Source of the DNA: a virus
Length of the DNA stretch: 64,000 bases
Direction: 5' to 3' (one strand)
Virus record (IMG/VR): IMGVR_UViG_3300046318_000520
Location: 63,704 to 127,703 of that record
Shown one piece after another: positions 6,864 through 48,693 of this stretch. The position numbers were made by a program, and so were the translations under genes. Below the pieces are notes generated by a model. The model searched no databases. It was not told where the DNA came from and saw only the letters and a program-made list of their open reading frames with translations. Positions within the stretch are counted from its first letter, which is position 1, and every line of letters begins with the position of its first letter.

Positions 6864-7250
6864 TTACTTTTTTTCTGTTTTAGTTTTTACATTATGACAA
6901 GCCTCACAGAGTACCTGCAGGTTGTCTATTTCACAAAAGAGTCTTTCTACAAACCCTGGTAGGTCTTGTGCACAATTAAGACTTCCTGCTGGGCAAATAT
7001 GATCCACGTTTATAAGTTTATCAGCGTACCATTTTAAACATTGGGCACACTGATACTCAAACTTTTGACGTTTATTTGGTCCTTTGTAGGGTCTCTTGGC
7101 TTCAAGCTTGCACTGTGTAATGGGTTTCCACCAGCGGGATTTTTGTCTTAAAGCAGATCGGATAAAGCTCCAGAAAGCAGACTCAGTCATAGTACCCGCG
7201 TTGCGGGTCTTGGTCACTCTTGGTTTTTTAGTAGTCTTGGCACGGCTCAT
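6864..7250 (-). CDS. HNH endonuclease
   Basis: CAQC...VDHI...NLQVLCEACHNVKT. Confidence 0.85.
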   Translation of the reverse strand: MSRAKTTKKPRVTKTRNAGTMTESAFWSFIRSALRQKSRWWKPITQCKLEAKRPYKGPNKRQKFEYQCAQCLKWYADKLINVDHICPAGSLNCAQDLPGFVERLFCEIDNLQVLCEACHNVKTKTEKK

Positions 7251-7308
7251 ATATGTAGAAGTTAGCTCTACAAATATAAGGAAGTTCTATATTTTAATAA
7301 TGTAGACT

Positions 7309-8289
7309 TTATACATACGCTCCTGTTTTTTTATTCAGCAGCGGAACCAGCCGGTTGCGTACTTCCTTGGCACCAAAATCCCTGATAGAATCTGAGAGAT
7401 CCTTGCTCATTGGTAACAGTAAAGGATGGATTTTATAATCATCCCTGTATTTTTCCATGGCTTTTATGCCAGGCTCGTCATTGTCAAACATGGCAATGAC
7501 AGTAGAATACATTTCTTTGTAATCATCTATAAGATTCTTACGTATCATACTGTTTTCTGAGTCAGGAGCTATGACATCTACGTTTAACCTCAGGCTTTTC
7601 AAGCTCATGATGTCTTTCAAACTGGAGGCAATCACAAGTGTGTGGTGGCCTTCTAGTTGTTCAGAGCCCTGTACATAGTCTCTGATCTTGAGAAACTTCT
7701 TATCCTGGGTTTTAGGTTGGTAAATCTTATATAGAGCACCATCTTCCTTGTAATAACCATAGATATAATTTCCTTTTATGTACAGTTCCTTGTCATCCTT
7801 GGTCATCTTGTAATAATCCAGTGGACGCACGTGATACTGGTCCAGTAATTTAGAACCAATATTAAACTGTGTCCAGTAATACTGATCCTGGCTGCTCCAG
7901 CTTCTAAAACAAACCTGCTCCACCTTATACTTAGAAGCCTGTTTGAATTCCTTCAAGTCGTAGCCTCCGTTATTATGCAGCACAAAGTCATTGTATTTTT
8001 CTACAATGAGCCCGCAGCTTTTATAAAAGCTCAGGCTGGTGATTTCCTTTACCAGGGTAAGATGGTCACCACCTATGCCGGTAGAAAAATCCTTAAACTT
8101 ATACTGCTGTTTTTTATCATCAAAGTAAATACACATACTGGGTGTTTTCTCCTTGGGATTAAACATGGATTTTACCTTGACGTCCTGGCCGCTGAGCTTT
8201 TCCTTTAGCTCACAAAAATGTTCAAACACCCAGGGTACCGGAACATCTTTGATATCATGTACTAGATTTTTTGTGTTAAACATAAACAT
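7309..8289 (-). CDS. DNA primase (TOPRIM)
   Basis: EKTPSM...FKDFSTGIGGD N-terminal domain; SLKD and FDNDEPG, KDLSD TOPRIM motifs. Confidence 0.85.
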   Translation of the reverse strand: MFMFNTKNLVHDIKDVPVPWVFEHFCELKEKLSGQDVKVKSMFNPKEKTPSMCIYFDDKKQQYKFKDFSTGIGGDHLTLVKEITSLSFYKSCGLIVEKYNDFVLHNNGGYDLKEFKQASKYKVEQVCFRSWSSQDQYYWTQFNIGSKLLDQYHVRPLDYYKMTKDDKELYIKGNYIYGYYKEDGALYKIYQPKTQDKKFLKIRDYVQGSEQLEGHHTLVIASSLKDIMSLKSLRLNVDVIAPDSENSMIRKNLIDDYKEMYSTVIAMFDNDEPGIKAMEKYRDDYKIHPLLLPMSKDLSDSIRDFGAKEVRNRLVPLLNKKTGAYV

Positions 8290-17525: not shown

Positions 17526-18665
17526 TTAAAAAGGGTTACTAGCACTTCTTTCTTCTACAGGCATTTCTTCCATCATCTGGTCAAAATCATCGGAAGACTG
17601 ATAGTCTTGACGTGCCGGGTGATTAGCCAGGATATACTGCATGGAGAGTTCTATCTCACCAACTTGTCCTTCATCCATGATACCACGGGAAGTGTAAGTA
17701 TTAATAAGACTTTCTACTTCAGCAATAGCCAGCTCAAGTTGTTCATTGGTAGTGTAGCTGTGCAGCATCTCCACCTTAGACATTACTGCCTTAACTTCTG
17801 GACTCATCAGTTTGTTCTGCAGTTCAGAACCCGCTGACTGAGAAATCATGATCTGGGCAGTCTTTACCAGGGCTTTGTCTACACTGATGTCCCATATGTA
17901 CGAAACAGCTTTGGTAAGCGTTGGTACAAAAGTTAGTGTACGGTCAGAACTGTGCTGGTAACCTACTTCCAGGTATTTCTCCAGTTTGGTCACAGGTACT
18001 TCTACCATGTCCAGTTCTGCTCTGTTTGGTACACCAATCTTAAATGATTCTTTGTAATTACGGGCACCCTTGTTAAAATATTTGACAAGCTCACCTGCAG
18101 ATACGCGGTTTACAGTCATCTTTAACATAAAACGGTCCCAGAACGGAGAATCAGACTCTTCTTTAGGAATCTCATTACAAGTAGCTACGAATAACTTCCA
18201 CTTACAAGGGATCTTGTGCTTACCGTTAAAAAGAAACTTCTCGTTCATAACACCTAGCATGGCATTACGGATACCGGCTGATGCTTTATCTACCTCGTTA
18301 ATAATAACAATCTCTGCTTCTGCAATAGGAGCTGCCACTTCATACCTGTTTTCTGTAAACAGTTTACCAAGATCTGGCATACCCTTGACTTCTGAAGCCT
18401 TGGTACCCTCGTCAGTCTCCAGGATGTAGATCTTGTTGGCAAAATCCTGGGCGGTCATCTTACCGTCTTTGTTTAGCCAGGCTTTAGCATATTCTATAAT
18501 GGTCTTAGTTTTAGCTACACCAGGTTCACCTACGAGCAAACAAGGCAGACCGGTTGATTCTGCCAGGGCCAGCATTTTGAATACTTCTTCTTTGTTGATC
18601 AAAGATGTATCAATTGTTCTTATTTCCTGTGTTGTCTTTTTAGTTATAGATTTAATTTTTGACAT
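17526..18665 (-). CDS. MoxR/RavA-like AAA+ ATPase (likely start 18665)
   Basis: GEPGVAKT, INEVDKA, ATCN, WDRF; the longer upstream extension overlaps another gene. Confidence 0.85.
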   Translation of the reverse strand: MSKIKSITKKTTQEIRTIDTSLINKEEVFKMLALAESTGLPCLLVGEPGVAKTKTIIEYAKAWLNKDGKMTAQDFANKIYILETDEGTKASEVKGMPDLGKLFTENRYEVAAPIAEAEIVIINEVDKASAGIRNAMLGVMNEKFLFNGKHKIPCKWKLFVATCNEIPKEESDSPFWDRFMLKMTVNRVSAGELVKYFNKGARNYKESFKIGVPNRAELDMVEVPVTKLEKYLEVGYQHSSDRTLTFVPTLTKAVSYIWDISVDKALVKTAQIMISQSAGSELQNKLMSPEVKAVMSKVEMLHSYTTNEQLELAIAEVESLINTYTSRGIMDEGQVGEIELSMQYILANHPARQDYQSSDDFDQMMEEMPVEERSASNPF

Positions 18666-18711
18666 TTTTGGCTTGTGATTAAGTGTTTGTGAAATGTTTG
18701 GTCTAATTAGG

Positions 18712-19137
18712 CTAGAGGTTTGCAAAGGCTGAAGCAGAGTCTGCGTCTGAGAACCCTGTTCCGCTATGTCCTGAAAGATTTTCTTCAACAGGGAAGTTAC
18801 TGACTGGTAATACCTGCTCTGCTCTGCTGGATTTGACTGGCTCAGATCTAAGTACGCGTTCCACAGTAGCCTCATGTCTTTGTTCAATATCTGATACGGG
18901 GGCTGAGATAGTGCTTGATCCATCTTTGGTGTCATCTATAATGTTAAATACAGTAATGTTTGTCTCAGCATTTTTAAGAGCAGGATGTTTACGGATCATA
19001 GTGATCTGCTGGTCTTTAGCATTATATTTGTCCTGGATACTACCATATCCAACATCATCACGCTTCATCCATGTAAGGCCATTGTCTAAATCTTCTAAGA
19101 TCTGTGATACGTACAGATCAACTTTGTTTACTGCCAT
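18712..19137 (-). CDS. hypothetical protein
   Basis: 141-aa ORF. Confidence 0.65.
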   Translation of the reverse strand: MAVNKVDLYVSQILEDLDNGLTWMKRDDVGYGSIQDKYNAKDQQITMIRKHPALKNAETNITVFNIIDDTKDGSSTISAPVSDIEQRHEATVERVLRSEPVKSSRAEQVLPVSNFPVEENLSGHSGTGFSDADSASAFANL

Positions 19138-27288: not shown

Positions 27289-28164
27289 TTGACCATGTTT
27301 CTTACGAAATCCTTAGATTACGCTTTTGACAAGCTAAATGTGGAGCCACATACCAAAGAGTGTGTGGCTTCTTCATTGAAATACATTCAACTGGCCATAC
27401 GCAAGCTTGCATTCAATCAAATAGAAACCAGTAAGATCACCAGAAAGCATATCAGACTAATCATGGACCAGTGTGAGCAGGATCGTAAGCTCTCACCACG
27501 CAACTGGAATGCATACAGGACGTACCTGGTTATGCTCTTTGAACAGTTGGTAGAATATGAGCTAGTGGATGATAATCCTGTCATACAGCTTAAAAAACGC
27601 CAGGAAGATGATGTGATCAGAAAAGTGCTCACTTTAGAGCAGCGTAATCTGCTAATTAACCACCTTACTGAGACAGATCCTGTGTTTTTACGCTTTATCA
27701 AGATATTCTTTCATTCCGGTGCCAGACGTACTGAACTCTTTAGTCTGCGTATAGAAAACATATACCTGGAAAAAGGATCCTACCAGGTTTTCGTCAAAAA
27801 AGGACGAAAGAAACGCTGGGTTACCAAAGTCATAAAAGACATTGCCCTTCCTTTATGGAGGGAGCAGATCAGTGATCACTTGACCGGATATATATTTTCT
27901 ACAGGATTGTTACCAGGTCCAAATCAGATTAGACCTGAACAGGCAACACGCAGGTGGAAAAGACATGTTAAAGATAAATTGAACATAAAAGCAGATTTGT
28001 ATTCCTTAAAACATCTGAACACAGATGAAGTGTCTGCAGAGCTGTCTTTGGCAGAAGCAGCACGGCTTAATAGTCACTCTATACAGATGGCTAGAAAACA
28101 TTATGCTATAAATGAGTCAACAAGGGAACTGGAACGGTTAAAAAAGATCTCAAACCACTTTTAA
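27289..28164 (+). CDS. int: tyrosine integrase/recombinase
   Basis: SGARRTEL (R), K, LYSLKH, NSHS and HY catalytic positions; SAM-like core-binding N-terminus. Confidence 0.88.
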   Translation: MTMFLTKSLDYAFDKLNVEPHTKECVASSLKYIQLAIRKLAFNQIETSKITRKHIRLIMDQCEQDRKLSPRNWNAYRTYLVMLFEQLVEYELVDDNPVIQLKKRQEDDVIRKVLTLEQRNLLINHLTETDPVFLRFIKIFFHSGARRTELFSLRIENIYLEKGSYQVFVKKGRKKRWVTKVIKDIALPLWREQISDHLTGYIFSTGLLPGPNQIRPEQATRRWKRHVKDKLNIKADLYSLKHLNTDEVSAELSLAEAARLNSHSIQMARKHYAINESTRELERLKKISNHF

Positions 28165-28712
28165 GAAGTCTTTTCTTCTATAAAGCTTTTCAGCAGGTCT
28201 GTGAATCTTCCTGTAGCTTCTGACATAGACTGCATGTCAGGTAGTAATGTCAATGAAACGTTATCTATAAAATTACCGTCTTCATCAACTTTATGACCAT
28301 TACGGATCATTTCGTAGATATTGCACTCTTTTTTAATAATGCTTTCTATATGCACTATTACCACTTCCTTTTTTATAGGAAGGTCTTTCCAGTTTTCATC
28401 TATCTCTTTACCTTTTTCTCCAGTGCGCAACCAGGCTTCAGAAGCCCAGGCTACTGCAAAAACGGTAAACTTTTCTTTTACCTTTTTTGAAATCTGTGGG
28501 AGCATTGTTGTAACAAAAGATTCTTTTCCTTCTTCTGTAAGCAAGCTGTCCGGAATAGGTACATGAATAATAGCCTGGGTTTTTTCTTCATCTTTGTTTG
28601 TTGCAAAGATGGTAAAATGGGGAGGCAGTCCTCCTGCATCACTGGTGCCCTGAACAATCATCTCAAGATAATCAGCTTTAAGCTGTTCAAACTTTTCCAT
28701 TGTAATGTCCAT
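28161..28712 (-). CDS. hypothetical protein
   Basis: 183-aa ORF with SEAW motif. Confidence 0.7.
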   Translation of the reverse strand: MDITMEKFEQLKADYLEMIVQGTSDAGGLPPHFTIFATNKDEEKTQAIIHVPIPDSLLTEEGKESFVTTMLPQISKKVKEKFTVFAVAWASEAWLRTGEKGKEIDENWKDLPIKKEVVIVHIESIIKKECNIYEMIRNGHKVDEDGNFIDNVSLTLLPDMQSMSEATGRFTDLLKSFIEEKTS

Positions 28713-28721
28713 ATAAGGGTT

Positions 28722-29573
28722 TTAAAAGATATACCGGATACCAGCCGGATCAAAGAATTCTGCATACAGTTTGGTAAAGTCCTGTATCATTTGACGTTTA
28801 AGCTGCCATTGGTAACGGATATTATCTGGTGCATACTGGCTGTCTTTCATTTCCTGTATGTCTGGTCTCCAGATTAATGATCTCACCTCATCTGAGTTAC
28901 GAGCATGTTGATGTACATTATGTGTGAGGAATATACACTCACACTTGACATTTATACCAGCTTCCCAGATTTCCTTAAAAAGTTTGTGATACTCAACTAA
29001 CCACCCGTCATGATAAATGATAGGAGAGAAGTTGATGTGCACTTCCATGTGATTCTGTAGCCTAGTAATACTAGCTATACGATCTGAGATTTTATCTGTA
29101 CCTGGTTCTAATACATCAGAATATATCTGAGGCATCAGGCTTACCCTGACTCTGTGTTTGACCGGGTCCATATTGTACCAATAAGGTAACAACATTGTAG
29201 GATACTTGGTAGCAAACGTGCTTTTAGCCTTGGGCTCTACATTGAAATAGTCAAAGACTATTTGCCAATCATAATGCTTACGCATAAGAGCTACGTCAGT
29301 GCTGCATCCAATATCAATAGTGTAATATTCAGAATCTACTTGATTAGGAATCTTCGGCCAGGGTTGTTTTTGTACCCATTGATCTACAGATGCTATAATG
29401 GGTAAGAAGTTTTCATTGACATACACTTTGTCATGATTATATCTACCTACATAGCAGTAGGAGGACATACATCCTCCTAAACAGCCATATATAAAGTTTG
29501 GACTGATAGCATCAGAGCTACGTCCATTGTCTCTTGTAATAAGAGTTTTAGTTTTTTGCTTGATGATCTGCAT
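28722..29573 (-). CDS. spore photoproduct lyase-like radical SAM protein
   Basis: GCLGGCMSSYCYV Cys cluster; ATKY, RVSLMP, EVHINFSPII, ECIFLTH. Confidence 0.8.
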   Translation of the reverse strand: MQIIKQKTKTLITRDNGRSSDAISPNFIYGCLGGCMSSYCYVGRYNHDKVYVNENFLPIIASVDQWVQKQPWPKIPNQVDSEYYTIDIGCSTDVALMRKHYDWQIVFDYFNVEPKAKSTFATKYPTMLLPYWYNMDPVKHRVRVSLMPQIYSDVLEPGTDKISDRIASITRLQNHMEVHINFSPIIYHDGWLVEYHKLFKEIWEAGINVKCECIFLTHNVHQHARNSDEVRSLIWRPDIQEMKDSQYAPDNIRYQWQLKRQMIQDFTKLYAEFFDPAGIRYIF

Positions 29574-29680: not shown

Positions 29681-29845
29681 TCATTTTGTTTCTTCTTTTT
29701 CTGTCCTGTGAATATGTGTTGTTCTGATATTTGTCTGACTGATTACAGGTCTGTCAGACGTAATAATACGATAGGCTAAAGCAGCACCAGTAACTGTAAA
29801 AAAGATCATTAGGCCACCGCCTGTTAGAGAAAGAAATGTATCCAT
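29681..29845 (-). CDS. small membrane protein
   Basis: MDTFLSLTGGGLMIFFTVTGAALAYRII... Confidence 0.5.
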   Translation of the reverse strand: MDTFLSLTGGGLMIFFTVTGAALAYRIITSDRPVISQTNIRTTHIHRTEKEETK

Positions 29846-29931
29846 GGTTTATGGTTTAATTGTTAAAGAAAGAAAAACCTCCAGTGTAGAAACACCGGAG
29901 GAAAATTTATAATAAACAATAAAAAACTAAG

Positions 29932-30710
29932 TGGAGGTAGCCGGATTTGAACCGGCGTCCAAACGAGAAGTCAATAAACAAAGAGATGTTACATGCTTAG
30001 TACTGATATCTACTCCGGGATCCCGTATGTAAATAATCTGCACCGTAGTTTTGATCTGTTCATTATGTATATCCCGGCAACATGTGTTACGTTAGTTCAA
30101 AAGAACTCGTACAACTCATGGGAGGAGCGGCATCATCTCCATTCTGTCTTAAAAACAATATGAACTAATCAGTAGGGCTGACCATGTTATGGTCCGATCC
30201 ACCACCTGGTTTTAGCTATCAAGTGTGAAACCAGGAAAGTCCACTTTTATACAAGAGGGCACAGGAAGCATACAGTCAGAACTTTGAGAGTTCAATACTC
30301 TTAACGGTTCGTTTGGCCCAGTGTTTATTACCCTTTTCCCCAACCGCCTATCGTCTGTTTAGGTTCCTGACAATGTATAATAGGAGGGCTGGATGTACGT
30401 TCATGACTTTGGGAGCGTAACTCTTAATATCAATGGGCTAGTGTTTATCCTCCTGTTTTTTTGGACCTCATCTATCCAATGTTCCAGAGATGCCGTTTTG
30501 CCATTTTCTGTTGCCAGGGATAGCTCCCCCGTAGGTTAGGCTGCTACTGCAACCTCACCGAAGATAGAAGCTAAAATAGCTTCACCTTCTGCTACACGAG
30601 AAGACTGTGTCTTGCCGTTTAAAAGTTAGCTCCGTGATTAAAGTGGTTTGAGAACCTTCCCACTGCATGTTTGCTTACCACTCACAAGTCTGTCAAAACC
30701 TGTTACCCCC
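29932..30710 (-). ncRNA. ssrA: tmRNA, oversized (~780 nt)
   Basis: 5' GGGGGTAACAGGTTTTGACAG; 3' GGACGCCGGTTCAAATCCGGCTACCTCCA; G3:U acceptor pair; CTAAGCATGTA; tag frame 30616-30536 ends VAVAA*. Confidence 0.9.
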
Positions 30711-30716
30711 ATATTG

Positions 30717-30968
30717 CTAGTTTAAATCTAATGCTTTAGTCCACTTCTTACAAGAAGCTACAGGATCTTTAACATAGTCTGTTAATTCAGCCATTGCAGC
30801 CAACGGATCTGTAAATGCAATGGATTTACATCCAACACGTACTACGCAGCCTGAAGTAAAAAACTGAATAGTCACTTCATACTGCTGTCTTAATTGATCA
30901 GCTGTAGGAATGTACTGATCTGAATAATCATTTTGTGGTTCTGGAACATGTGATAAATCCGGTCTCAT
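30717..30968 (-). CDS. hypothetical protein
   Basis: 83-aa ORF with GCVVRVGCK motif. Confidence 0.65.
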   Translation of the reverse strand: MRPDLSHVPEPQNDYSDQYIPTADQLRQQYEVTIQFFTSGCVVRVGCKSIAFTDPLAAMAELTDYVKDPVASCKKWTKALDLN

Positions 30969-31010: not shown

Positions 31011-31346
31011 TTATCCTTTAATGTCTACGTGAATTGTTTTACCTGATAAAACATCCTCTATCAGGTCCTCAATCATCTGACGTTGCTCTGCGTTCAACAG
31101 AGATACTCTATCCACTATTGCCGGTGTGGCAAATGGATCTGACTTGATCTCTACTGATATTCCTTTTCTTACATCGTCATCAAAATGAGGAAAAGTTAGT
31201 ATGTCAGTGATGATCCAGTTTAGCCTGCGGGAATAGTCCTTAAAAATATAAGCACCACGAGTATTTGGTGTGGATCTTATAAAATCTTGCATAAATTCAT
31301 TTGCCATCTTTACATGTTGTATGGCTTGTACAATATTACTGACCAT
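31011..31346 (-). CDS. hypothetical protein
   Basis: 111-aa ORF. Confidence 0.65.
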   Translation of the reverse strand: MVSNIVQAIQHVKMANEFMQDFIRSTPNTRGAYIFKDYSRRLNWIITDILTFPHFDDDVRKGISVEIKSDPFATPAIVDRVSLLNAEQRQMIEDLIEDVLSGKTIHVDIKG

Positions 31347-31650
31347 GAGCTTCAGATTTTACAAGGTCAAGAGCTATTTGGTGTCCAGCTAATGCATCTT
31401 CATGAGATGTATAACGTTTCTGGTACTGATCATGCTCACCACCAAATATCATAGTCTCCCATAATATAGGAGTATCAGATCCTAATGGTGCATGATTAAA
31501 CCCAAGAAATACAGTAGAGACACGAATATCATCGTTTATACGATCTTGCTGAGTGATCTTCATTTCAGCATCTTCATAAAGCTTAAGTGATTCTTGAAGG
31601 GACACCTCGTAAGGTTTTTTGTCCTTGTCTAAAAGATAAAAGTGAGCCAT
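31336..31650 (-). CDS. conserved phage hypothetical protein
   Basis: VSTVFLG...WETMIFGG...RY...A.AGH motif. Confidence 0.7.
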   Translation of the reverse strand: MAHFYLLDKDKKPYEVSLQESLKLYEDAEMKITQQDRINDDIRVSTVFLGFNHAPLGSDTPILWETMIFGGEHDQYQKRYTSHEDALAGHQIALDLVKSEAHGQ

Positions 31651-31757
31651 AGTGTTGTGGTTTTGAGATAAATAAGAGTAACCAGGGCTGGATTCAAACC
31701 AGCGTTCATACTCCATAAGAGGTGCCTATTCTCTTGGCTACCTGGTTATAAGTTTAG

Positions 31758-48217: not shown

Positions 48218-48571
48218 ATGATCAATAACCTATACACCTACAAAGCCACTGTCAACCGGATAATTGACGGGGACACAGCAGAACTGACCATTGACCTGGG
48301 ATTCACCGTAAAGTGGAAATCCACTTGCAGGTTCTATGGTATAAACACACCTGAATTAAAAAGCAGAGATGTAGCCGTCAGAGATAAAGCCAAAGATGCC
48401 AGGCTATATGTAAGCACACAATTAATAACAGGACTGGAAGTGATGATTGTTTCCCGTATGCTGGATAAATATGGCAGGCCACTGGTGGATATTTACTACG
48501 GAAAAGATTTTACAAATCATATTAACCAGGAGCTTGTTGACAAGCAACTGGCTGTGACATATTTATTGTAA
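48218..48571 (+). CDS. thermonuclease (SNase) family protein
   Basis: IIDGDT...GINTPE...DKYGRPL. Confidence 0.88.
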   Translation: MINNLYTYKATVNRIIDGDTAELTIDLGFTVKWKSTCRFYGINTPELKSRDVAVRDKAKDARLYVSTQLITGLEVMIVSRMLDKYGRPLVDIYYGKDFTNHINQELVDKQLAVTYLL

Positions 48572-48661
48572 GGTGGTGAAACTGGCAGACACACCTCCCG
48601 GTCTCGGAGGCGGGAGTGGGGAATCCCCGCTCGTTTGGAGGTTCAAATCCTCCCCTTACAG
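48567..48661 (+). tRNA. class II tRNA-like RNA with atypical anticodon loop (GTC)
   Basis: Acceptor TGTAAGG/CCTTACA-G; CCTCC-CGGTCTC-GGAGG; 8-bp variable arm; GGAGG-TTCAAAT-CCTCC. Confidence 0.8.
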
Positions 48662-48693
48662 CTGATTTATTAATTAACAATAAACCTAAAAAC

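Follow-up and report, generated by a model that had tools for sequence, protein, structure and literature searches.

Transfer-messenger RNA (tmRNA) is usually taken to be about 350–400 nucleotides (nt) long, with 3' pseudoknots that are variable but modest in size. The standard one-piece form (SsrA, Rfam family RF00023, as in E. coli) has a tRNA-like domain with a G3:U pair, a T arm, helix 2, a tag reading frame placed between pseudoknots 1 and 2 (PK1 and PK2), further pseudoknots, and a tag that ends in Ala-Ala. A comparative set published in 2005 gave a typical length of about 350 nt within a range of 250–425 nt (PMC1168896), and 10 is the most frequent tag length given in the report on the 2025 tmRNA database (PMC11915505). 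Here we describe a phage tmRNA gene of 779 nt with a tag frame of 26 codons, located on the minus strand at positions 29932–30710 of a 64,000-nt stretch of DNA (the window), which is the right half of the virus record IMGVR_UViG_3300046318_000520. The gene has these elements in the same order, its pseudoknots other than PK2 being putative, and departs from the standard form in its length, in its 26 codons, in the absence of smpB from the phage genome, and in failing both RF00023 and ARAGORN. We regard it as probably a working, standard one-piece tmRNA gene of a crAss-like freshwater phage of about 128 kb, in which the inserts are retained in the mature RNA as expansion segments.

Phage tmRNA genes have been reported in 402 of 18,146 phage genomes (PMC9004378), and the 2025 database holds 79 phage sequences drawn from RefSeq viruses (PMC11915505). 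Mycobacteriophages, and marine myophages such as Melnitz in which the tmRNA is in two pieces, carry an ssrA gene of their own and no smpB, as does the phage described here. The present gene stands apart from these known phage tmRNAs as a one-piece gene of crAss-like phages, with a family-specific long tag and variable expansions, and its family has no match beyond the T arm in 50,697 GenBank phage records. For the length of the tag there is a precedent in Mycoplasma. The tag of M. pneumoniae has 27 residues and is thought to be adapted to Lon (PMC8403727), and Mycoplasma tags are described as ending in AFA and accompanying the loss of ClpXP (PMC3985003). The 26-residue phage tag is therefore unusual but not without parallel in its length; unlike the Lon-read tags it keeps a ClpX-type Ala-Ala end.

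A family of phage tmRNA genes

The gene is one-piece and measures 779 nt up to the discriminator A. Its limits were set by a script that pairs a 7-bp acceptor stem with an adjacent 5-bp T stem. On the minus strand it starts with GGGGGTAACAGGTTTTGAC and ends with GGACGCCGGTTCAAATCCGGCTACCTCCA; the bases after the discriminator A are CTT, and CCA is absent from the gene. The initial annotation, made from the sequence alone, had read two tRNA-like ends and a tag frame on this strand, and both the script and the sequence place every element that it listed where it had put them, with 779 nt between the ends. Its view that the element is a phage-encoded one-piece tmRNA is supported by colinear relatives that RF00023 and ARAGORN do call. 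The window gene itself was missed by both tools, which had been suggested as checks. ARAGORN, run on the window, called no tmRNA at the locus, and Rfam at the gathering score (RF00023, 47 bits) gave no match in the window; below that threshold RF00023 matched the 3' end locally, at 17 bits, and left the rest of the gene unmatched. A two-piece permuted tmRNA was considered and rejected, because the gene order is standard (5' acceptor, tag, T arm, 3' acceptor) and the corresponding family, RF04321, reached only 16.4 bits.

Exact strings from both gene ends led to two viral contigs, with genes of about 444 nt (L002) and about 377 nt (L003), that have the same architecture and near-identical 26-codon tags. 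The family was scanned with a degenerate pattern for the tag core in viral contigs, bacterial and archaeal genomes, and metagenome contigs. All 22 pattern matches in the viral contigs are short frames that end in A[V/I/L]AA and a stop. Metagenome contigs gave 92 matches, of which 38 pass a strict tag filter and 8 more are family tags that have other ends (ELEVA, TELV, LALA, LVAA, MAA) or are cut by the end of the contig, making about 46 in total. The 185,579 bacterial and archaeal species, represented by one genome each, yielded 42 matches and no tags: 40 lie in open frames of at least 104 codons, and two are short frames without an Ala-Ala end. Among the GenBank phages, blastn of the gene gave no match, tblastn of the tag gave none at E≤10, and blastn of a 355-nt relative found only 30–40 nt at the T arm. 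A scan for the PK3 motif (AAACYAGGTGGTGGA) was too unspecific, giving at least 118 new loci of which at least 8 have tmRNA ends. The runs that contain the sequence are labelled as freshwater, soil, and marine metagenomes, the top ones being freshwater. We found no description of the tag family, or of a one-piece tmRNA of this size, in the literature; the tables of the tmRNA database may catalogue a member.

Most of these relatives are recognised by the standard tools. RF00023 scored 60.7–98.8 bits, above gathering, in 15 of the 16 relative loci scanned, genes of 643–684 nt among them, and the sixteenth (L021) is a gene split by a group I intron. Other long members (640–681 nt) score 64–66 bits. 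ARAGORN calls a tmRNA in 11 of 22 loci, all with genes of 355–424 nt and with the same tag frame, and makes no call in the other 11, where the genes are 444 nt or longer. We put the failure of the standard tools down to gene length, and the miss of the window gene by RF00023 is attributed to its two large inserts. The window gene is colinear from end to end with relatives of 355–681 nt found in viral and metagenome contigs. Compared with L010 (402 nt), its positions 1–212, 466–513, and 702–779 are 81%, 98%, and 82% identical. Dozens of independent contigs have this architecture and tag, so the locus is more than a chance arrangement. As judged from sequence, it is a member of a real tmRNA family, because the tools recognise its relatives, the alignment is colinear, and the paired elements covary.

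The elements of the tRNA-like domain lie at both ends of the gene (all coordinates within the gene are for the minus strand). The 5' strand of the acceptor stem, GGGGGUA with G3, was placed by the script at 30704–30710, and its neighbouring pairs are compensated in relatives. A D-loop-like GGUUUUGAC segment follows at 30692–30700, in a column conserved in the family alignment; it reads GGTTTTGAC at gene positions 11–19 and fits the GGxUUyGAC type. At the other end, 29932–29956 holds the T arm (GCCGG UUCAAAU CCGGC), the 3' acceptor strand UACCUCC, and the discriminator A. The loop of the T arm is of the GGUUCRANUCC type, the T stem covaries (columns 448–452 with 460–464), and the local RF00023 alignment spans the T arm and acceptor. 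The G3:U alanine determinant, T arm, and D-loop-like segment claimed in the initial annotation are thus all present, and the G3:U pair is retained in 19 of 19 relatives in the family alignment.

Both strands of the long helix 2 are found in the window gene, and in the family it has many compensatory changes. Its 5' strand, followed by the PK1 region, occupies 30623–30691 (columns 21–48 covarying with 409–444), and its 3' strand, which includes CUAAGCAUGU, occupies 29957–30000, with columns 409–414 invariant or compensated with respect to 43–48. The PK1 stems AGUGG/CCACU and GUUCU/GGAGC were read by eye. PK2 is at 30499–30534, and its stem 1 covaries in the family (columns 196–210). The PK3 region (UUUCCUGGUU ... 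AAACCAGGUGGUGG ... GACCAU/AUGGUC) at 30172–30245 is 92–98% identical to relatives over 38–65 nt, and the PK4 region (UACGGUGCAGAU ... AUCAGUAC) at 30001–30046 was placed by alignment with L002, L125, and L020. PK1, PK3, and PK4 were assigned by eye or by alignment; RNAalifold cannot predict pseudoknots, and the whole-gene minimum free energy (MFE) fold was not used since it ignores them. With 19 short members RNAalifold predicted 56 pairs, 32 of them with compensatory change, and in this set the acceptor stem, T stem, helix 2, and PK2 stem covary. The window gene has an intact tRNA-like domain, helix 2, PK2, and tag frame, all of them conserved, with compensatory changes, across many phages.

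The tag reading frame

The tag frame at 30536–30616 has no start codon and lies between PK1 and PK2. It comes after TTTTAAAC, opens with the resume codon GGC, reads GKTQSSRVAEGEAILASIFGEVAVAA over 26 codons, and ends with a hydrophobic residue, Ala-Ala, and the stop TAA. There are 32 unique tag-coding sequences in the family, 28 with 26 codons and four with 27. In the 28 unique 26-codon tags, variable columns number 9, 8, and 24 of 26 at the first, second, and third codon positions. The VAEGEAILA core was imposed by the search pattern and its invariance is not independent evidence; outside the nine codons fixed by the pattern the variable columns are 8, 8, and 15 of 17. Such variation at the third position is the signature expected of a translated frame. 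The 26-codon frame of the initial annotation proves to be real and conserved on the strength of this third-position bias, and its conservation among homologues, on which that annotation had made its case depend, holds in 22 of the 22 viral matches. The tag core is kept between phages with terminases that are only 28–29% identical. Tags in two sampled Bacteroidota genomes have 9 and 10 residues.

Independent evidence on the core comes from one member found through an RNA motif and not by the tag pattern, in which the core differs, with EGD for EGE. Other relatives found by RNA motif have different tags of 22–26 codons, for example GNVQLSEMTFEKAIEFVNEYEMAA and GNTNVDLSDYTVESLFAELEGELALA. Long tags of this length, rich in acidic and hydrophobic residues and in some cases ending in ELELA, LALA, or EMAA, were seen in L203, L254, L275, L193, L215, and L163/L263. 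Long tags look like a wider habit of such aquatic phage tmRNAs.

Part of the tag conservation is due to an RNA hairpin in codons 10–19 (EGEAILASIF). This 12-bp hairpin at 30560–30589 corresponds to RNAalifold columns 131–160, and its compensated pairs include 139–151 (AU 14, GC 4) and 142–148 (AU 10, UA 5, UG 2). The proposal in the initial annotation that the tag is an amphipathic extension was not borne out. Between 696 and 2108 of 5000 shuffles, according to which stretch was taken, had a helical hydrophobic moment at least as high as the observed one, and an amphipathic helix was rejected.

Two expandable sites

Landmarks were available in 44 family genes. In these the 5' part, PK2 included, keeps to a constant 193–208 nt, and length varies at two sites only. 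The segment from PK2 to PK3 ranges from 31 to 336 nt (median 52.5) and is 297 nt in the window gene; the segment from PK3 to helix 2 ranges from 39 to 199 nt (median 68), the window gene having the maximum. Among 47 unique family genes only the intron-bearing L021 is longer, and the window gene is the extreme of a continuum of 355–779 nt and no one-off. Its doubled size comes from two expandable sites in the PK2–PK4 arc.

Expansion A, of about 253 nt, lies between PK2 and PK3 (30246–30498); L010 has 3 nt where the window gene has positions 213–465. It contains a recurrent pseudoknotted module, about 105 nt long, in two diverged copies; the module was also found once in L009, L023, L103, L149, L021, and L073 and twice in L007 and L099. 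Copy A (30380–30487) has four helices, P1–P4, and since P1 and P3 cross, the module is a pseudoknot. Copy B (30253–30369) is more diverged and has the same four helices. MAFFT misaligned the 3' part of the module, hence a covariance model was built from four near-identical copies in other phages and the helices were measured with our own script. The model matches copy A over its full length (25.7 bits, E 0.0054), likewise matches the second copies of L007 and L099 (33.5 bits, E 7e-5, full model), and over 579 kb has no convincing match that lies outside a tmRNA gene. The module region is unmatched by any Rfam family.

The seven module copies examined fall into four diverged types, and P1–P4 are present in all of them, with totals of 20–23 bp compared with shuffle means of 13–16. 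The observed total was reached by 1, 50, 12, 0, 3, 3, and 18 of 1000 shuffles for the individual copies; the value of 1 belongs to copy A, with 21 bp against a shuffle mean of 13.0. The helices surround conserved AUAAA, UUAAGA-hairpin, and CCAAAG motifs. By type, P1 is CUGGA/UCCAG, CAGGAA/UUCCUG, UUGGAA/UUCCAG, or ACUGGA/UCCAGU; P3 is AGGAGG/CCUCCU, AGGGUA/UGCCCU, GGAGC/GCUCC, or GGGAG/CUCCC; and P4 is GAGU/GCUC, GAGU/ACUC, GAAC/GUUC, or GAGC/GCUC. The P2 hairpin has a wholly different sequence in each of the four types.

Expansion B is a stem-closed domain of about 125 nt between PK3 and PK4 (about 30047–30171). Its closing helix, UGAU-UA-GUUCAU paired with AUGAAC-AG-AUCA, is present in both the MFE and the centroid folds. 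By eye, the domain looks like an enlarged version of a short hairpin, ACUGAUCAG, that occurs at the same place in small family members. The roughly 400 extra nt pointed out in the initial annotation are real and are at least partly structured.

Four runs were compared with the locus, all as assembled contigs in which ends, strand, and expression level are not readable. The X13 contig (437 nt, from an RNA library) is unbroken over 30216–30656 and spans expansion A, PK2, the tag, and PK1. Two other contigs, also from RNA libraries, cover 30205–30533 (X20, 360 nt) and 30125–30245 (X16, 151 nt), the latter crossing the junction of PK3 and expansion B. No contig covers 29914–29977, and uncovered parts are no evidence either way. 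The RNA-library contigs fit retention of the inserts, short of proof. Joined forms that skip 30213–30497 or 30246–30497 are also seen in RNA libraries. Since 34 or 120 other letters separate the two sides in them, these are relatives with other inserts and not splice products.

X13 comes from a slightly different, near-identical strain with 14 substitutions relative to the window. Four of the substitutions form two compensatory doubles (U-A to C-G in P4 of copy B and G-C to U-A in stem 1 of PK2), four are one-sided changes that keep the pair (two in PK2, the others in P2 and P3 of copy B), one breaks a terminal P1 pair, and five are in positions taken to be unpaired. Since the pattern mostly keeps pairs, it speaks for selection on a folded PK2 and a folded module.

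Phage, host, and neighbouring genes

The record has 127,703 bp, and its completeness was estimated by CheckV at 99%. A terminase homologue was found in all five family genomes tested (114–127 kb), with identities of 82, 78, 67, 29, and 28%, and because identity goes down to 28% the tag family spans a deep divergence in crAss-like phages. The relatives of the terminase in GenBank, none of which reaches 60% identity, are only crAss-like phages of Bacteroides, Flavobacterium, Cellulophaga, and Azobacteroides, which makes Bacteroidota plausible as hosts. When a short family member was compared by BLAST with 401 Bacteroidota genomes, 35 of them gave matches, of at most 68 nt and mostly about 30 nt, at the 3' end; being short 3'-end matches only, they carry no information on the host. 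A Pfam search of the whole 127.7-kb genome found no SmpB, ClpP, Lon (Lon_C), SspB, or CCA-adding enzyme (PolyA_pol), so that host factors, or phage proteins of unrecognised families, must serve for charging, delivery, completion of the CCA, and proteolysis. The absence of smpB, remarked on in the initial annotation for the window, extends by the same search to the rest of the genome.

The tmRNA gene is set between minus-strand open reading frames (ORFs) at 29681–29845 and 30717–30968, with no ORF of 60 residues or more between them. Small ORFs inside the gene (29993–30163 on the plus strand, 30212–30343 on the minus strand, and 30393–30539 on the plus strand) were rejected as genes, having no Pfam match and one weak PHROG match (E 0.023). 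A hairpin with a U tract that resembles an intrinsic terminator lies at 29878–29901 on the minus strand, 30 nt past the 3' end of the tmRNA; it has 10 pairs (six G-C) and then TTTTTCTTTC. The region has one such site, against a shuffle mean of 0.9.

The tmRNA block in common with relatives includes a replication-initiator helix-turn-helix protein, a ParB-like protein, and a 183-residue protein. The gene for the last of these (28161–28712, minus strand) is near the tmRNA in 20 of 53 family loci; the protein has no Pfam or PHROG match, and Atlas returns viral hypothetical clusters only. Directly downstream of the tmRNA is a radical-SAM gene resembling spore photoproduct lyase (28722–29573, minus strand; PF20903, 39.7 bits). 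A tyrosine-recombinase-like gene (27289–28164, plus strand; Phage_integrase, 28.4 bits) is 64–80% identical to sequences in 6 of 53 family loci. In the early region of the phage, 17526–18935 (minus strand) encodes a MoxR-type AAA+ ATPase (PF20030 bpMoxR, 80.8 bits). A Hatchet ribozyme (RF02678, 82.4 bits) was found in a related phage contig at L005:191-325, about 8 kb from the tmRNA of that contig.

An over-long tRNA-like gene of 96 nt, called by ARAGORN as tRNA-Asp(GTC), lies at 48567–48662 (plus strand) in the window. Relatives have similar genes at L022:3665-3784, L021:246-370 and 522-649, L020:7012-7116, and L013:3631-3729, where the Rfam tRNA matches measure 99–128 nt, and the set as a whole covers 96–128 nt. 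These genes may have inserts or long extra arms. At 31679–31747 (minus strand), overlapping the 3' end of ORF 31336–31716, RF00005 gave 36.9 bits in the whole-genome search; ARAGORN and the window-wide Rfam gathering scan gave nothing there.

Discussion

The locus encodes a genuine tmRNA that is unusual in its size, in a new recurrent pseudoknot module, and in a conserved, phage-specific tag. If it works as we think likely, the RNA would be transcribed with the early/replication gene block and would end at the terminator at 29878–29901, and host enzymes would trim its ends and complete the CCA. Host AlaRS would charge it with alanine by way of G3:U, and host SmpB and EF-Tu would deliver it to stalled ribosomes. 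Translation would resume at the GGC codon (30616) and would add the 26-residue tag ending in Ala-Ala. These steps are taken from established tmRNA biology. Cryo-electron microscopy places the PK2–PK4 arc outside the ribosome, around the 30S head, which would explain growth at this site. A review describes the arc as dispensable and interchangeable in vitro (PMC3985003).

The expansions have partial parallels elsewhere. In cyanobacterial one-piece tmRNAs PK4 is replaced by tandem pk4a/pk4b (PMC1168896), a precedent for multiplied pseudoknots in the 3' arc. The phage gene differs from these in having a larger four-helix module between PK2 and PK3, an enlarged hairpin domain, and a far greater total size. 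By analogy, rRNA expansion segments and intervening sequences are likewise lineage-specific, stem-closed additions of variable length at fixed peripheral sites; they belong to a different RNA, and the inserts of the window gene would compare with the expansion segments if retained and with the intervening sequences if excised.

Intron-form tmRNA genes are oversized as well. The longest genes given in the report on the 2025 database are a permuted one of 1152 bp that has a repeat element and an intron-bearing one of 1116 bp, the introns described there being in the T loop only (PMC11915505). The family member L021 (L021:6574-7911) is of this kind. Its tmRNA gene of 1338 bp, 526 nt when spliced, is interrupted in the T loop by a group I intron of 812 nt (7082–7893), which sits behind GGGUU and has a 202-residue ORF on the opposite strand. 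According to the same report, no tmRNA intron is above 700 bp, and introns at this loop position occur only in Bacteroidia (PMC11915505). A group I intron form was rejected for the window gene. Its T loop is intact, and Intron_gpI has no match at E≤10 in 29700–30900, with L021 as the positive control at 85.5 bits (RF00028); unlike the introns, the inserts lie outside the T loop and have no match to any intron family, and RNA-library contigs still contain them.

Several points weigh against a working tmRNA with retained inserts. No tool calls the window gene as a tmRNA, and its identity comes from alignment to relatives. DNA may be present among the RNA-library contigs, from which neither ends nor strand nor a lack of processing can be read. 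The module helices go back to a proposal made by eye, and with only four diverged types the covariation statistics are thin. Copy B is unmatched by the covariance model at E≤1, and its 21 bp of helices, against a shuffle mean of 16.2, were reached by 50 of 1000 shuffles. No sequence relative of expansion B was found by BLAST against the family loci or by exact 19-mer search of the viral contigs, and the three insert pieces fold no better than shuffles (z −1.05, −0.35, and +0.89). The host, finally, was proposed solely from relatives of the terminase.

The inserts could instead be intervening sequences that are removed, either as unrecognised introns or by RNase III-type cuts at the closing stems, leaving a working RNA of about 400 nt or a set of base-paired fragments comparable to rRNA with intervening sequences or to permuted two-piece tmRNAs. 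The helix of about 10 bp that closes expansion B and the joining of the ends of each module by P1 are suited to this, the family does include an intron in L021, and introns outside the T loop may be systematically missed, according to the database report (PMC11915505). The joined forms in RNA libraries might be counted in its favour, but the other letters that they carry assign them to relatives. RNA-library contigs are unbroken across both junctions of expansion A and across the PK3/expansion B junction. The search of 29700–30900 also gave no intron family, and the compensatory changes inside copy B fit a retained fold better, even though a processing stem would be conserved too. We consider removal of the inserts unlikely.

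It is harder still to see the gene as a decaying or neutral relic, that is, a captured tmRNA gene bloated with junk and no longer engaged in trans-translation. Its place as the longest of the family genes, its scores under the detection limits of both standard tools, and inserts that fold no better than shuffles are what such a relic might present; however, all core elements are intact, the tag core is identical to that of relatives, the substitutions in the near-identical strain mostly keep base pairs, the family persists across phages with terminase identities of 28–82%, and the other long members still score well on RF00023. A relic is highly improbable on this evidence. Hardest to sustain, and the proposal to which we give least credence, is that the tag frame is untranslated and conserved for RNA structure, the RNA acting through its tRNA-like domain in competition with host tmRNA or in place of it. 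The hairpin with compensatory changes in codons 10–19 would suit this, as would the tag-less form reported for mycobacteriophage DS6A, which inhibits host tmRNA (PMC11915505). Yet third-position variation is also found outside the hairpin and the pattern codons, all frames stop directly after hydrophobic-Ala-Ala or a similar end, and the relatives found by RNA motif keep open frames of 22–26 codons with different sequences.

A more ambitious extension of the working tmRNA with retained expansions is that the expansions are functional domains, that the fate of the tag is set by the phage, and that the whole amounts to a customised trans-translation based on host SmpB. The module and domain B could provide a docking site for a phage or host factor at the solvent face of the rescuing ribosome, or shield the RNA from host nucleases, and the 26-residue tag could direct rescued proteins to a phage-determined fate and not to ordinary clearance by ClpXP. 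In that case the RNA may be the largest one-piece mature tmRNA described. As a whole this combination is tentative and rather doubtful, and a phage-specific function of the modules or of the tag is speculative.

In summary, the arc from PK2 to helix 2 can take more than 400 extra nt at two fixed sites, and one of the additions is a reusable pseudoknot module outside Rfam. Because longer members escape ARAGORN and Rfam at the gathering score, counts of phage tmRNAs are probably too low. The tag is conserved and phage-specific, being absent among the pattern matches in 185,579 species genomes, and it gives a handle on what the phage gains. Candidate benefits are rescue capacity during host shut-off, the replacement of host tmRNA targeted by defence, and the redirecting of tagged proteins.

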